This document shows, one piece after another, positions 2,714 through 8,468 of a DNA stretch of 8,799 bases. Every line of letters begins with the position of its first letter. Position 1 is the stretch's first letter. The stretch lies in the IMG/VR virus record IMGVR_UViG_2534681774_000024; one strand, 5' to 3'. The notes beneath the pieces were generated by a model that was not told the origin of the DNA, did no database searches, and worked only from the letters and a program-made list of their open reading frames with translations. The position numbers were made by a program, and so were the translations under genes. Source of the DNA: a virus (lineage: Duplodnaviria; Heunggongvirae; Uroviricota; Caudoviricetes).

Positions 2714-2992
2714 ATGACCAAAGAGCATGCACAAGGTGTATTTATCCGTTTTATTGATTTTCGCGGTGAACTGTTATTACGCGCATCAGCCATTGACGGA
2801 GTTGTTCCATCCGAAAAAAACGCAGCTACTTACGTTTATCTGAACGGTACGCGCCTGACTGTGGAGCTTCCGTACCAGACCGTGCGAGAAATCATTAGCG
2901 AAGCTGAAAAGGCACGTCAGGTTAATGGCGATGAACCATATATCGAAATTATTTGTATGGATTCAGAAGCTGAAATTCAGAAAGCAGATTAA
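2714..2992 (+). CDS. Hypothetical early-operon protein (92 aa)
   Basis: The ORF-track start at 2654 is a TTG overlapping the previous gene. The first ATG is 2714, 11 nt after the upstream stop, with a weak AGGTG upstream. Composition is protein-like. No family recognised. Confidence 0.45.
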   Translation: MTKEHAQGVFIRFIDFRGELLLRASAIDGVVPSEKNAATYVYLNGTRLTVELPYQTVREIISEAEKARQVNGDEPYIEIICMDSEAEIQKAD

Positions 2993-3003
2993 AGGGCGTT
3001 GCG

Positions 3004-3246
3004 ATGGGCAAAGAATATAAAACTCTCATTAACAAAGCACTTGAACGATTTTATTTTCGCTTAAGTGCATCAGGCGCTCATGCTGAACGTGCAGCCCGTG
3101 ACTCATTGACCAGGGCAATCCGGAGTTTGTATGACGTCGCTTTTTACGCTGATGATCTGGATGCACTTAACGAACTTTCCGAGCTGATCTGTGCCGCAGA
3201 ATGCGGGGAACATATTGAACCGTATAAGCTGGGGAATATCGCATGA
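3004..3246 (+). CDS. Hypothetical early-operon protein (80 aa)
   Basis: ATG 3004 with AAAGGG 7 nt upstream. Its stop overlaps the start of the next small ORF in an ATGA arrangement. Confidence 0.5.
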   Translation: MGKEYKTLINKALERFYFRLSASGAHAERAARDSLTRAIRSLYDVAFYADDLDALNELSELICAAECGEHIEPYKLGNIA

Positions 3247-3356
3247 GTATATTTATCTCATGGCTTGTTCTGATTATTTCGGTGGCCTGCGCCATTGGAA
3301 TTATGCGAATTATTCATTCAGTAAAAAAGATTGAACGTTTTTTCACTGGTGAATAA
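3243..3356 (+). CDS. Small single-pass membrane peptide (37 aa), not in the supplied ORF track
   Basis: ATG 3243 overlaps the stop of the upstream gene (ATGA); GGGGA lies 7 nt upstream. The translation is MSIFISWLVLIISVACAIGIMRIIHSVKKIERFFTGE: one hydrophobic helix followed by a short basic tail. Stop TAA is at 3354-3356. Confidence 0.45.
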   Translation: MSIFISWLVLIISVACAIGIMRIIHSVKKIERFFTGE

Positions 3357-3450
3357 CGATACAAATAAAACATCAAATTAAATAAGAAAACGTGAAAACC
3401 ATCCGTATTAACGGAGGTATTCGCACACGCAAATAACGGAGATACAAAAA

Positions 3451-3861
3451 ATGCACGCAAAAGAAGAAGGTATCATCAGAGCACTGAAAGAAATTTCAAA
3501 GACAGAAAACGAAGTAGCGAAAAAAGCCATAGCAAATAATCATATGGACGTCGCAACCCACACACTGATAGTCGCAAGAGTCACGGCAGAAGCAGCCGAA
3601 ATTATCGCAAAACAGGATGCTGAACTGGCGGTTCTCAGAACACAACCAGTCACCGGACTGGATTTGTCTAACACCGGACGCCTTATTTACACAATTGGCT
3701 CGGAGCTACAGCGATACACCATTATCGCCGGGTTACAGGATAAATACCTGATCACTCCTCACCCCATAAGGGAATCAGAAATTCTGACAAATCTCCGCCT
3801 GATAGAGCGCTCTCAAGTCGCATTCATTGATGACGCACAGTGCACCGTATTTAACGCATAG
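3451..3861 (+). CDS. Hypothetical protein (136 aa) whose 5' end lies in an AT-rich islet
   Basis: ATG 3451, preceded by a duplicated AACGGAG motif and a roughly 95-bp AT-rich non-coding stretch. No family recognised. Confidence 0.5.
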   Translation: MHAKEEGIIRALKEISKTENEVAKKAIANNHMDVATHTLIVARVTAEAAEIIAKQDAELAVLRTQPVTGLDLSNTGRLIYTIGSELQRYTIIAGLQDKYLITPHPIRESEILTNLRLIERSQVAFIDDAQCTVFNA

Positions 3862-3884
3862 AGTTACTGGACAAAGGGGGCGCA

Positions 3885-4088
3885 ATGGCAATTAAGCATT
3901 TTCCCGTCGTTCGCTTTACCTCCAGAGGGCGCGAATACGAGGTCGACGAACGCCTGATTACCACTATCGACAAACATCGTTCGGAAAAGGATGCACACCA
4001 CATCTACCTCACTGACGGCACTTACTTCTGCGCCACTAATGTGGCGCGGGTAAACCTTATCCGACAGGTACAGGAGCCACGCAGATGA
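3885..4088 (+). CDS. Hypothetical protein (67 aa)
   Basis: ATG 3885 with AAGGGGG upstream. Its stop overlaps the next start (ATGA at 4085-4088). Confidence 0.5.
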   Translation: MAIKHFPVVRFTSRGREYEVDERLITTIDKHRSEKDAHHIYLTDGTYFCATNVARVNLIRQVQEPRR

Positions 4089-4647: not shown

Positions 4648-4665
4648 GAAACCAGAGCATGCACA

Positions 4666-4793
4666 CACAAAAAAACCGCTTGCCATGCCGCAATCAGTCA
4701 GGTTACATTTCCGCTGCACCTCATAAAACGGGTGCCGGGTTTCGCAGCCTGCTGACTACAAGAGCGCACAACCGCGCCAGCGGTTTTTTTGTG
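4666..4793. repeat. Perfect 15-bp inverted repeat pair (CACAAAAAAACCGCT at 4666-4680; reverse complement at 4779-4793) bracketing 98 bp
   Basis: Read directly from the sequence. Each arm contains a run of seven A (or T) next to CCGCT/AGCGG. Confidence 0.7.
4770..4790 (+). terminator. Candidate intrinsic terminator: AACCGC-GCCA-GCGGTT hairpin running into T7
   Basis: A 6-bp stem (4770-4775 / 4780-4785) with a 4-nt loop, followed by a T-run through 4790. The stem is short, so this is tentative. It sits about 120 bp downstream of the stop of ORF 4348-4647. Confidence 0.35.
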
Positions 4794-4969
4794 CGTACTG
4801 TATTGCCACGTTTTTTTCGCGTCAGAATTATGGCGGGGCGTACGGGGCCGACTTCGGTCGGGCCGGGATCTCTTGTAGCCGGTACTGCGAACCTCGTACG
4901 TCTCGCCACCCACAGTTTCGCAGCTCTGGATGGTGAGTTTTCACAACTTACTACAAGAGGCCACATATC

Positions 4970-5200
4970 ATGGCAAACCGCAAACAGCACCGCACTATCG
5001 CGGAGCGTCGTCACATCCAGACTGAAATCAACCGCAGACTTTCCCGCGCATTCCGCGTCGCTAAAATCATGCACATCAATATGCTGCATGAGCGTAGCTG
5101 CGAACTTTCAAACCTCTATTCATCCGCTGTTTTCAGCTATCTGGCGGATGATCTGCGCGAGCTTCAACAGCTCATCCAGCAGCAAAACAAACTCCATTAA
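4970..5200 (+). CDS. Hypothetical protein (76 aa), predicted helical
   Basis: ATG 4970 with AAGAGG 9 nt upstream. The product is Arg/Gln-rich but protein-like, whereas the overlapping frame (ORF 4659-5276) is Ser/Arg-rich and low-complexity. Confidence 0.5.
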   Translation: MANRKQHRTIAERRHIQTEINRRLSRAFRVAKIMHINMLHERSCELSNLYSSAVFSYLADDLRELQQLIQQQNKLH

Positions 5201-5272
5201 TTCCTGTTCCGGACCTTTCCTGCACCTTGCGGCGGGAGGCCTTCGCACATCTGTAACAAGAGGATTGCCGCA

Positions 5273-5638
5273 ATGATTCTCGCCAACGACTTTCTTGAAT
5301 ACCTGCTCAACACAGAACGTGATCTTGCCGCTCGCGTGCGTGATCGTTATGACATGTACCTGAAATCCCTGCCTGTACCGCAGCTCGCTGACGGAAAGAT
5401 TGTTATTGATGGTCGCTACATGATTGACAGCCACGAGGGAAATTACAGGCTTTACCGCATTGAAGGTGGCACCCCGTCCGTTATTGGCATTTACCAGCGC
5501 CCATCCTCTGCAATCGTCGATGTGATTGCCGACAGCATCCGCATCACACATCGCCATGCCGACACAGAAGACACCGTGCTGGAAATTCAGCGGCTGGCTG
5601 CCGTCTGCCGCGACACCCTGAATGGCATGACGAAGTAA
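5273..5638 (+). CDS. Hypothetical protein (121 aa) immediately upstream of gene A
   Basis: ATG 5273 with AAGAGG 9 nt upstream. Its stop is 6 nt before the gene A start. Confidence 0.5.
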   Translation: MILANDFLEYLLNTERDLAARVRDRYDMYLKSLPVPQLADGKIVIDGRYMIDSHEGNYRLYRIEGGTPSVIGIYQRPSSAIVDVIADSIRITHRHADTEDTVLEIQRLAAVCRDTLNGMTK

Positions 5639-5644
5639 ATCACT

Positions 5645-8468
5645 ATGACGGCAGAGTACATCAGGGACTGGCAACAACCGCGCCACGCAGTGGGACGTGA
5701 AGGAACGGGGATCCCCGTTCCTGAATCTGCGCTTTCTTCCTGGCTGGATGCCTACCGGGCAGAGAACGAGCGCCGCCAGGAAATGGCTGATGCGGCGTTC
5801 TCCGCCACGCCGCTGGGCAACCTGATTAATAAAAGCCTGGATGCACAGGAAAAACAGGACAAAACCATCACACTGGCAGGAGACGCCAGAAAACAGGCAC
5901 GCGGCGCGGTGGATGAAGCCATGGCCTCGCTGCGCCTGCTGCCGTCCTATCTGCGCGATCCGCTTATTCGCCACCTCTCCTTCCTGCGCAAAAAACAGGA
6001 AGTCGATCGCCGGAAAGGCAAAAAGAGCTGGCAGGCTGAACGCTACGCGCGCGGAACCCTGCGCAAAATATTCGAACGTCTGGACCGCACCGACCACCGC
6101 TGGCTGACACCGGGTTATCGCTCCCTTGCCGGACGCGAACGCCTGGATGATTTGCTTTACCTGCCGCAGCTCAACAAGCACCAGATACAGACGCTGGCCA
6201 CCATGACGGCGGCGATGTTCAGCAGCACCTTCGAAAAACTCTGCGATGGCTTTGGCGCGACTGATGGCGAACTGACCATGGATGTAACGCTGAAGGCGTA
6301 TCAGATGCTGGCCCGCATGGCGTTACACCTGCACGCCATGCCTCCACATTATGACGCACTGACAACAGACAAAGACCGGAGGAACGAACCGGACACGGAG
6401 CTGCTGCCGGGCGCAATCCTTCGCCTGACCTGTGCGGAATGGTGGAAACGCAAACTGTGGCTGTTACGTTGCGAGTGGAGAGAAGAACAACTCCGCGCCG
6501 CCTGTCTGGTTTCCAGAAAAACATCACCCTATCTGAGCCAGGACGCGTTAAGCGAGTTTCGCGCACAGCGCGAGAAAACACGCGATTTCCTGAAAAGTTT
6601 CATGCTGGAAAATGAAGACGGGTTCACGATTGATCTCGAGACAGTGTATTACGCGGGAGTAAGTAACCCGGTTCACCGTAAGGCAGAAATGATGGCCACC
6701 ATGAAGGGACTGGAACTTCTGGCCGAAGCCCCGTGGCGACAGAGCGGTGTTTCTGACTGTCACCTGCCCGTCAAAATACCACGCAACAACGGAGAACGGT
6801 CATCCGAACCCCAAATGGAACGGGGCCACCATGCGCGACTCCAGCGATTACCTGGTTAACACGTTTTTTGCGGCGGTCCGCAAAAAACTGAACCGCGACG
6901 GCCTGCGCTGGTATGGCATCCGCACGGTGGAGCCTCACCATGACGGAACCGTGCACTGGCATATGATGGTCTTTGCCCATCCGGAAGAAATCGACACCAT
7001 TGTGTCCCACACCCGCGATATTGCCATTCAGGAAGATCGTCACGAGCTGGGCGATGATATTACTCCGCGCTTTAAGGCGGAGTATGTAGACGGCTCAAAA
7101 GGCACGCCAACCAGCTACATCGCCACCTACATCGGAAAGAACCTGGACAGCCGCGCCGTGGATGGCATCGACCCGAAAACGGGCAAGCCACGCGTTGACC
7201 ACGAAACAGGAAAATCAATGGCCGAGAGCGTGGAGCGCGCCATCGGCTGGGCGCGCCTTCACCGGGTCCGCCAGTTCCAGTTCTTTGGCATTCCCTCCCG
7301 TCAGGTGTGGCGTGAACTCCGCCGCCTTGCCAGCCAGATGGCACGCAACCCGGAAGGCCCGCAACGGCTGAAGGATGACGCAATGGATGCGGTTCTTGCT
7401 GCCGCTGATGCCGGGTGTTTTGCCACCTACATTGAAAAACAGGGTGGCGTACTTGTTCCGCGCAAGGACTACCTGATTCGCACCGCCTACGACCTCGCAG
7501 ATGAGCTGAACGATTACGGCGAACAGAGTGTACAGATTTACGGGATCTGGTCGCCATTCATCGGGGAATCCTCCCGTGTGTGCACGCATCCGGATAACTG
7601 GAAGCTGGTAAGACGTAAACCGGAAGCGGAGGACAGCGCCCGCGAAAATGGTTTTGACCTTCAGGGCGGCCCTGCCGCCCCTTGGACTCGTGGCAATAAC
7701 TGTCCCCGTGTACAGGAAACGGACAACAACGGGACAGAACAGTCGGAAGAACGGCCAGCACCGTGGCCGCAGCTCCCTGACGGCGTTGAAGTGAACGAAT
7801 GGATGCGCTCACTGAAACGGCACGAACGCCGGGCGCTGATGCGTTCGCTTCGTGACAAACAGGCAAAAAACAGCAGTGATGAAATGCAGAGCTGGACACA
7901 GAGCCGCAAACAGCAGTGGCCTTTGCCTGATAACCACGAATTACTCGCTAAAGAATGGCGGAAGTCTGCTGAATCTCTCGGCCTGCATATCGGTGAACAA
8001 CAGATGCAGCACCTGTTACGGGGCGGCAGTCTGTACGTTGACGGCAGCATCATTGCACCGCAGGGATTTGAAATTGTACGCAAACCGGATACCCGCCCGG
8101 ACAGTCGAATCACGCAGCTCTGGCAGCGCCTGAGCCGTAATCATGGCGTAAGCAGCACGGAGATCCGCCATAACCCGGTCGCCAGCTATCTGGCACAGCT
8201 GGGGGCATCAGACCCTGAAGCCGCCGCACGCCTGGCATCCACACTTCAGCAGGACCAGAACACCATGAAAACACCCGTTACCGTGCTTTCTGACATGCTG
8301 CGCGCCATCCGCGACGCAGAGCACGCACAGAGAATCAGTGAAATCACTGAACGCGCCAGCCGCAAAGCAGACCTGCTGCGGGGTGGCCTGACCAGCGGAA
8401 ACAAAAAACAGACAGAAACGGGACTCACGAATCCCGTAAATGAGCAAAAAACGCGCAGCGATATATGA
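5645..8468 (+). pseudogene. A: P2 gene A-type rolling-circle replication initiator (HUH endonuclease), read in two frames with a frame change near 6729-6732
   Basis: ORF 5645-6859 (frame 2) and ORF 6747-8468 (frame 0) overlap by 113 nt. The downstream part carries FLTVTCPS, the HUH motif in GTVHWHMMVF, and a paired-tyrosine motif TSYIATYIGKN, matching what I recall of the P2 A / Phage_GPA family. Frame 0 is open from 6705. Removing one C from the CCCC run at 6729-6732 gives a continuous reading ...[27 protein letters not shown]... The 6747 start in the ORF track is a GTG inside this reading. Confidence 0.75.

Follow-up and report, generated by a model that had tools for sequence, protein, structure and literature searches.

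A conserved 37-codon gene and an adjoining accessory-gene slot in the early operon of P88-like Escherichia coli prophages

In phage 186, the first block of the early operon ends with two short genes, fil and dhr, followed by an intergenic gap that is the tR1 terminator region. Peptides of fewer than 50 residues with one hydrophobic helix and a charged tail include type I toxins (Hok, Ldr, TisB and Ibs) and small inner-membrane regulators of the AcrZ, MgrB and MgtS type; many small single-pass proteins regulate membrane proteins rather than act as toxins. Morons are accessory genes of temperate phages that carry their own promoter and terminator. Here, we analysed a stretch of 8,799 nucleotides (nt) from a P88-like Escherichia coli prophage (IMG/VR record IMGVR_UViG_2534681774_000024, hereafter the window), in which a 37-codon gene, pep37, is followed by an AT-rich spacer and a 136-codon gene, orf136. 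Both P88 and phiSM are active phages that can be induced (PMC6456863). A literature search on DUF4754, DUF4761, the accessions and the peptide sequence found no description of these genes in the library searched.

The element can be assigned to the P2 family, Peduoviridae, and within it to the genus Xuanwuvirus. Around the interval with pep37 and orf136, 1.75 kb of sequence showed 98–100% DNA identity to P88-like phages and prophages, the layout of the element (int, C, a cox-like gene and gene A) is that of P88-like phages, and 7.9 kb of the window differed from E. coli FDAARGOS_1059 (NZ_CP066032) by one mismatch and one single-base indel. In annotated relatives, the minus strand carries the integrase and a C-type repressor. 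The plus strand carries, in order, a cox-like gene, a DUF4761 gene, orf92 (92 residues), a DUF4754 gene, pep37, a gap, orf136 (an optional cassette), orf67, a MarR-type winged helix-turn-helix gene, an Ead/Ea22-like gene and replication gene A. Judged from this gene order, the interval is the junction of two early lytic operon blocks.

In P88, gp07 is the same gene as pep37: the two peptides are 100% identical over 37 residues, and gp07 likewise follows the DUF4754 gene and overlaps its stop as ATGA. The slot that follows is empty in P88, whereas it holds orf136 in the window. Like fil and dhr, pep37 is a short gene that ends the first early-operon block before a gap, and that gap lies at a position comparable with the terminator regions downstream of gene B in P2 and of dhr in 186. 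However, Fil (75 residues) and Dhr (66 residues) have no transmembrane helix and no sequence similarity to pep37, and a consensus scan found no plus-strand terminator-like site in the gap of the window.

Conservation and coding potential of pep37

We gathered 85 loci with the DUF4754 protein as anchor (80 IMG/VR contigs, 2 genome contigs and 3 annotated records). The gene pep37 (3243–3356; product MSIFISWLVLIISVACAIGIMRIIHSVKKIERFFTGE) was intact, with no premature stop, in all 85, encoding 37 residues in 78 loci and 45 residues in 7. Its ATG overlaps the TGA of the DUF4754 gene as ATGA, and both start and overlap were invariant, in agreement with the original prediction, made from the sequence alone, of a small gene translationally coupled to the gene upstream. 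Among 32 distinct 37-residue alleles, 15 variable sites fell at the third, 10 at the first and 4 at the second codon position. The ratio of non-synonymous to synonymous polymorphism (pN/pS) was 0.26 in the coding frame, compared with 1.40 and 1.01 in the two remaining forward frames, and 0.21 for codons 1–32 over all loci. The amino acid changes were conservative (V/I, A/V, H/N and R/Q). Residues 1–33 changed very little overall, with M1–F4, S6, W7, L10–V14, C16, I18–I20, I23, I24, S26, K28, I30 and R32 unchanged in every locus. The original prediction had held that a frame not kept intact in related prophages, with no sign of purifying selection, would speak against the gene; the 85 loci show an intact frame with a pN/pS of 0.21–0.26, against about 1.0–1.4 in the other forward frames, and by this comparative standard pep37 is therefore real. 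Taking the anatomical and evolutionary claims jointly, pep37 is very probably a protein-coding core gene of the P88-like lineage, under purifying selection.

Another explanation of the same conservation is that the 37-codon frame is not translated and has been kept as an element acting at the level of RNA or DNA, for example an mRNA structure or a regulatory site, where the first operon block ends. A conserved stem-loop lies just downstream, and in E. albertii the peptide region is 91% identical compared with 78% for the DUF4754 gene, both of which would suit such an element. The concentration of substitutions at third positions, the restriction of low pN/pS among forward frames to frame 0, the conservative nature of the changes, the invariant start and overlap and the lack of premature stops all argue for translation instead, as does the finding that the sole frameshift class is limited to the last four codons and yields a stable longer isoform. 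An untranslated element is thus extremely improbable.

The longer isoform of 45 residues (7/85 loci) results from a T-run one base shorter (window 3338–3345, within CGTTTTTTCAC), which swaps the last four residues for a polar C-terminus, ...ERFSLVNNDTNKTSN. A homology search with this natural isoform as query found it in 15 database clusters at 75–98% identity, one of them with 63 member sequences; it is therefore a recurrent diverged allele class and not a sequencing error. Apart from one Citrobacter phage, all relatives of pep37 came from Escherichia, E. albertii and E. fergusonii among them. The gene is not unannotated, as had been supposed: it is listed as WP_000021656.1, "hypothetical protein", in RefSeq and as P88 gp07, "membrane protein" (YP_009113050.1). 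It is thus annotated but uncharacterised, and belongs among small phage membrane proteins.

Genome-scale counts were made over 5426 complete E. coli genomes, and counts in the phage collection by record. The segment 3200–3430 was present in 1305 of the genomes (about 24%); about one in four complete E. coli genomes has a P88-like prophage, O157:H7 and ST131 strains among them. In the phage collection, pep37, DUF4754 and orf67 were found in one and the same set of 14 records.

Some unusual copies were set apart. In phage 503458 (NC_049341), the DUF4754 and peptide genes are both broken by frameshifts or a small deletion, the sole degraded copy seen; its 57% identical peptide was rejected as a distant homologue, being a degraded, frameshifted version. 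Database entries of 103–116 residues that resemble natural DUF4754–peptide fusions, which would have spoken for a partnership, were likewise rejected: most come from draft assemblies, and they are frameshifted reads in the +2 frame. A 47-codon open reading frame (ORF) at 3191–3334, also in the +2 frame, overlaps the end of DUF4754 and pep37 and has a pN/pS of about 1. One locus came from a 226-kb contig of a Firmicute assembly labelled Vagococcus sp. (NZ_JBQPOM010000071.1) that carries an E. coli prophage region at 95–97% DNA identity; this assembly is likely contaminated or mislabelled.

Base composition of the interval and the orf136 slot

The original prediction took the interval for a separately acquired insert, a moron, on account of a hand-counted G+C content of about 28% at 3301–3420. 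The dip itself is real. The G+C content of 3300–3419 is 0.283, and the 120-nt segment with the lowest value over the 8.8 kb scanned starts at 3292 and has 0.275, where the mean is 0.518 (z = −3.45); a windowed calculation, proposed as the check that would remove the dip if it were spurious, thus placed it 3.45 standard deviations under the mean. The lowest values belong to the tail end of pep37 (0.25) together with the intergenic DNA (0.33). Silent sites of pep37 are like those of its upstream neighbours, with a G+C content at third codon positions (GC3) of 0.32 compared with 0.35 in orf92 and 0.39 in DUF4754. The drop lies instead at first codon positions (GC1), 0.38 compared with 0.57–0.60 in the two upstream genes, as would be expected of a product with much Ile, Phe, Ser, Lys and Met. 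From the sequence, the dip is mainly made up of the Ile-, Lys- and Phe-rich 3' codons of pep37 and the conserved spacer, and does not call for a foreign origin.

Comparison of the loci identified the only presence/absence element here, the orf136 cassette between the spacer and orf67. All loci share the sequence up to ...GGAGGTATTCGCACACGC (window 3430) and again from about 12 nt before the orf67 ATG (about 3873); in relatives with an empty slot, the spacer runs directly into the orf67 Shine-Dalgarno sequence. The slot was empty in 45 of the 85 loci and held an orf136-family member of 122–138 residues (136, 138, 137 or 122) in 34, a protein of 87–105 residues corresponding to the N-terminal domain only in 5, and an orf136-family member with a second ORF in one E. 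albertii locus; as the loci are the closest DUF4754 matches, these frequencies are biased and the fractions indicative only. The peptide gene and the AT-rich spacer, by contrast, were present in 85/85 loci, including those without orf136. Presence or absence in related prophages had been suggested as a check on the islet, and what varied was the cassette alone.

These results bear on the proposal that peptide gene, spacer and orf136 together form one horizontally acquired moron with a toxin, exclusion or kil function. The dip, as the minimum of the window, and the presence or absence of orf136 among relatives fit that proposal. However, the peptide gene and spacer accompany the flanking core genes in all 85 loci and all 14 phage records, the peptide occurs without orf136 in 45/85 loci, the GC3 of pep37 is like that of its upstream neighbours, and the cassette begins only at 3431, beyond the lowest-G+C part. 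In addition, a consensus scan, a simple one that weak or non-sigma-70 signals could escape, found no plus-strand promoter-like site in 3243–3900 and no plus-strand terminator-like site there other than a weak hairpin inside orf136 (3646–3661). A single acquired moron is accordingly very unlikely. The sharp dip marks hydrophobic and Lys-rich coding sequence and intergenic DNA rather than foreign DNA, which corrects a tempting shortcut, and the exchangeable element adjoins the dip and has an unremarkable composition.

The cassette resembles a moron in being a single accessory gene that is present or absent, and replaced by other alleles, at a fixed site. It differs in consisting of a Shine-Dalgarno sequence and an ORF only, with a G+C content of 0.45 compared with 0.48 in the early operon. 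It is not a classic moron, since no promoter or terminator of its own was detected by the scan. It looks like an in-operon plug-in, one that would be expressed together with the early genes rather than from the prophage, and as an accessory-gene site the slot is ordinary, though neat. At the spacer, silent-site composition changes in a step, from a GC3 of 0.32–0.39 in orf92, DUF4754 and pep37 (2714–3450) to 0.53–0.65 from orf67 onward (from 3885). By this measure, the early operon has the look of two modules that differ in history and meet at the slot.

The product of orf136 had been described as a protein with no recognisable family. It is indeed an orphan accessory protein with no Pfam, NCBIfam or PADLOC match, and a profile search of Protein Data Bank (PDB) sequences gave nothing below E = 0.06; it does, however, belong to phrog_9338, which it matches end to end (E = 1.9e-75; residues 1–136 on profile positions 1–138) and which carries no functional annotation. 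An AlphaFold2 model built on a diverse alignment (mean predicted local distance difference test score, pLDDT, 84.8) comprises a long helical hairpin at residues 3–64 (pLDDT >90) and, beyond a variable linker, a beta domain of five strands at 78–125, which in the model resembles a small beta-barrel of the SH3/KOW/Tudor type. To PHROG 9338, these results add a domain model (helical hairpin and candidate SH3/KOW-like barrel), modular short forms and a fixed slot. The family comprises 89 clusters, all from Escherichia, Shigella or Citrobacter, with 24 representatives among 1.84 billion proteins. Alleles are mosaic, with a pN/pS of about 0.53 that rises to 0.77 in parts of the N-terminal domain. 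From the model, we tentatively suggest that orf136 probably encodes a rapidly evolving, dimeric protein-binding adaptor. Two E. albertii homologues (P0073 and P0077) have a linker expanded by tandem DTGLNLS/DTRLNLP heptads, reaching 149–156 residues. The empty, long, short and mosaic alleles of the slot amount to a natural experiment on the role of orf136-type proteins.

The original prediction also treated the peptide and orf136 as a unit. A two-component system, for example a membrane effector with a soluble sensor or antidote, would agree with two adjacent genes on the same strand of one operon, and 6 of the 7 alleles encoding the 45-residue peptide adjoin an orf136-family gene. However, in over half of the loci an intact, conserved pep37 adjoins an empty slot, and the allele association is explained by linkage in recombination blocks. 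Over complete genomes, pep37 was found in 1305 and orf136-family DNA in 836 (836/5426), so that about two-thirds of these prophages carry some version of orf136. Such a pairing therefore has hardly any probability, and by the evidence of the loci pep37 is independent of orf136.

Predicted topology and possible roles of pep37

The product of pep37 was described beforehand as one hydrophobic helix with a basic tail, and the sequence properties agree. Its best 19-residue Kyte-Doolittle mean is 2.68 (residues 3–21), and among the ORFs of at least 30 residues in all six frames of the window only one other attains 2.5. A transmembrane helix is predicted at about residues 2–21, followed by a basic amphipathic tail at 22–37. 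The N-terminus has no charged residue, and the tail, RIIHSVKKIERFFTGE, contains four basic and two acidic residues (net +2 over residues 22–37). According to the positive-inside rule, which is well established, the uncharged N-terminus and the basic tail predict an N-out/C-in orientation. The hydrophobic residues I23, V27, I30 and F34 recur every 3–4 positions in the tail, which would suit continuation of the helix in amphipathic form. We considered and rejected a lipoprotein: SVAC16 resembles a lipobox, yet many alleles have V or I in place of A15, and a basic n-region is lacking. The best Pfam match was PET117 (E = 0.19), and searches of PHROGs, NCBIfam and PADLOC returned nothing.

With this shape, pep37 might be a membrane-damaging toxin of type I, holin or kil-like character, causing early depolarisation or a division block and leading to host shutdown or abortive infection. 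In size and shape it is like the Hok, Ldr and TisB peptides, with one hydrophobic helix and a basic tail; the small residues S13, A17 and G19 are conserved; and its early-operon position, just before an intergenic gap, is that of fil and dhr in phage 186. Of the hallmarks of type I systems, pep37 has the small hydrophobic peptide (in the predicted N-out/C-in orientation), and not the antisense RNA, the promoter or long leader of its own, or the family match. No toxin, holin or kil family matched at E ≤ 1 in Pfam or PHROGs, nor did any Pfam family of small regulators of the AcrZ, MgrB or MgtS type match, no Rfam antisense RNA was found over the gene, and the ATGA overlap couples pep37 to DUF4754 as a member of the operon. 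The comparison with phage 186 is weakened by Fil, which shares neither transmembrane helix nor sequence with pep37, and early pores would in general hurt a phage that has yet to replicate. We therefore regard a membrane-damaging toxin as rather unlikely.

We favour pep37 as an early-lytic host-interaction factor rather than a gene for lysogenic conversion or exclusion. The gene is part of the early lytic operon, with the cox-like gene upstream and no detectable promoter. A role in exclusion or conversion would need expression from the prophage, of which there is no sign. The peptide would be made only when the early promoter fires, on infection or induction, and in a fixed ratio to the DUF4754 protein. 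It would enter the inner membrane N-out/C-in and act by protein–protein contact through its conserved helix (W7, S6/S13, C16 and G19) and juxtamembrane tail, either binding a host membrane protein or recruiting the DUF4754 protein to the membrane. In this scheme orf136 would be an optional in-operon accessory that pep37 does not need. Taken as a whole, this mode of action is possible and is put forward tentatively; anatomy and mode of action blended, the overall explanation is moderately probable.

Several points weigh against this account. The function proposed for pep37 is suggested by its position and shape only, its transmembrane topology is judged from hydropathy and charge, and neither pep37, DUF4754 nor orf136 has a homologue of known function. 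The sequences of the 85 loci are related and their allele counts are not independent events; the bias of that sample and the simplicity of the consensus scan, both described above, count here as well. The control reading frame 1 of the reverse complement also has a low pN/pS (0.30), which is expected because its third positions are shared with the coding frame.

A further-reaching version would have pep37 found a new family of phage early membrane micro-proteins that, with DUF4754, disables a host inner-membrane machine (division, transport or membrane-anchored defence), the slot being an unrecognised hotspot that swaps orf136-family adaptors for counter-defence or exclusion. We consider this unlikely. 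As a conserved and selected 37-residue membrane protein of the early operon, pep37 is predicted to be a widespread small protein, and one that is easy to test in the inducible phages P88 and phiSM.

Spacer stem-loop and other features of the window

The coordinates of the features in and around the interval are given in Table 1. The right flank of the slot, orf67, had a pN/pS of 0.16 in the comparison of 85 loci.

Table 1. Features in and around the pep37–orf136 interval, with positions in the window
Feature	Position	Strand	Basis or remark
DUF4754 gene, 80 residues	3004..3246	+	Pfam PF15946, E = 2.8e-54; stop overlaps the pep37 start
Shine-Dalgarno-like GGGGA, 7 nt before the pep37 ATG, within DUF4754 codons	3231..3235	+	Read from the sequence; GGGGA or GGGAA in 85/85 loci
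pep37, predicted 37-residue membrane micro-protein gene, very probable P88-like core gene	3243..3356	+	ORF, conservation, annotation
AT-rich intergenic spacer, 94 nt, G+C 0.33	3357..3450		First 74 nt conserved with or without the cassette
Conserved stem-loop, core TCCGY-N4-RCGGA at 3402–3415	3392..3424	+	Fold and pairing across alleles
Variable one-gene cassette, 442 bp: Shine-Dalgarno, orf136, 11-nt tail	3431..3872	+	Junction alignments
orf136, 136-residue accessory protein, PHROG 9338	3451..3861	+	Profile match and structural model
orf67, 67 residues, conserved right flank of the slot	3885..4088	+	Comparison of loci

The first 74 nt of the spacer were common to 85/85 loci. As described originally, the spacer is AT-rich and contains a duplicated AACGGAG motif; its length is 94 nt, and the copies are at 3410 and 3435. 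The second copy (3435–3441) is the Shine-Dalgarno sequence of orf136, and the first (3410–3416) belongs to the 3' arm of the conserved stem-loop, the core of which reads TCCGT-ATTA-ACGGA in the window; the 3' arm holds GGAGG as well as the first AACGGAG. The fold of 3350–3455 has an energy of −16.5 kcal/mol (z = −3.37 compared with shuffles). Pairing was kept in 91% of cells over 20 distinct alleles, with two G-U wobble variants, and one stem pair covaried (CG in 13 and UA in 6); this covariation probably reflects one or two evolutionary events, which makes for modest support. Rfam gave no match over 3243–3861 at E ≤ 1, and the gap has no U-tract on the plus strand. Candidate roles of the stem-loop are stabilisation or processing of the mRNA at the block boundary, or ribosome access downstream.

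Two other readings of the spacer were considered and rejected. A leader frame from GTG 3392 to TAA 3436, MKTIRINGGIRTRK, is open and is not a conserved ORF, because its start codon varies (GTG, ATG, CTG, GTA and GAG); the 3-nt periodicity of variation in this frame was too weak to count. The frame is in phase with orf67 where the slot is empty and fuses to the 87-residue ORF in loci with a short cassette, and it may be what is left of an older N-terminus. A minus-strand small RNA, with a promoter-like site at 3499–3472 and the hairpin at 3415–3402 as terminator, was also dismissed. The site, the only promoter-like one on the minus strand, has 9/12 promoter matches, which is within chance expectation, lies in protein-constrained codons of orf136 and is absent from relatives with an empty slot, and the minus-strand fold is unexceptional (z = −1.27).

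Elsewhere in the window, an isrK Hfq-binding RNA was identified at 4716–4790 (66.7 bits; gathering score 50) and a C4 antisense RNA at 4826–4913 (81.1 bits; gathering score 45), with a weak match to the c4 a1/b1 target at 4703–4755. Together, the plus-strand RNAs at 4703–4913 look like an antisense-RNA immunity module of the P1/P7 type upstream of a 76-codon ORF (4970–5200), and the long ORFs called at 4659–5276 are probably spurious. The P88 "derepression protein" (gp14) is encoded in a place comparable to that of the 76-codon ORF, a likeness by position only. Replication gene A is split into ORFs of 404 (5645–6859) and 573 (6747–8468) codons by an extra C in the C-run at about 6729–6732 relative to NZ_CP066032 (GCCCCGTGG compared with GCCCGTGG), and is either a pseudogene or the product of a homopolymer sequencing error. 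At the other end of the window, the 3' end of an insertion sequence (IS) transposase gene of the IS66 family (IS679; 46–666) overlaps the 3' end of the integrase gene (587–1585). The integrase ORF may therefore end in residues of IS origin, in which case the prophage could no longer excise.

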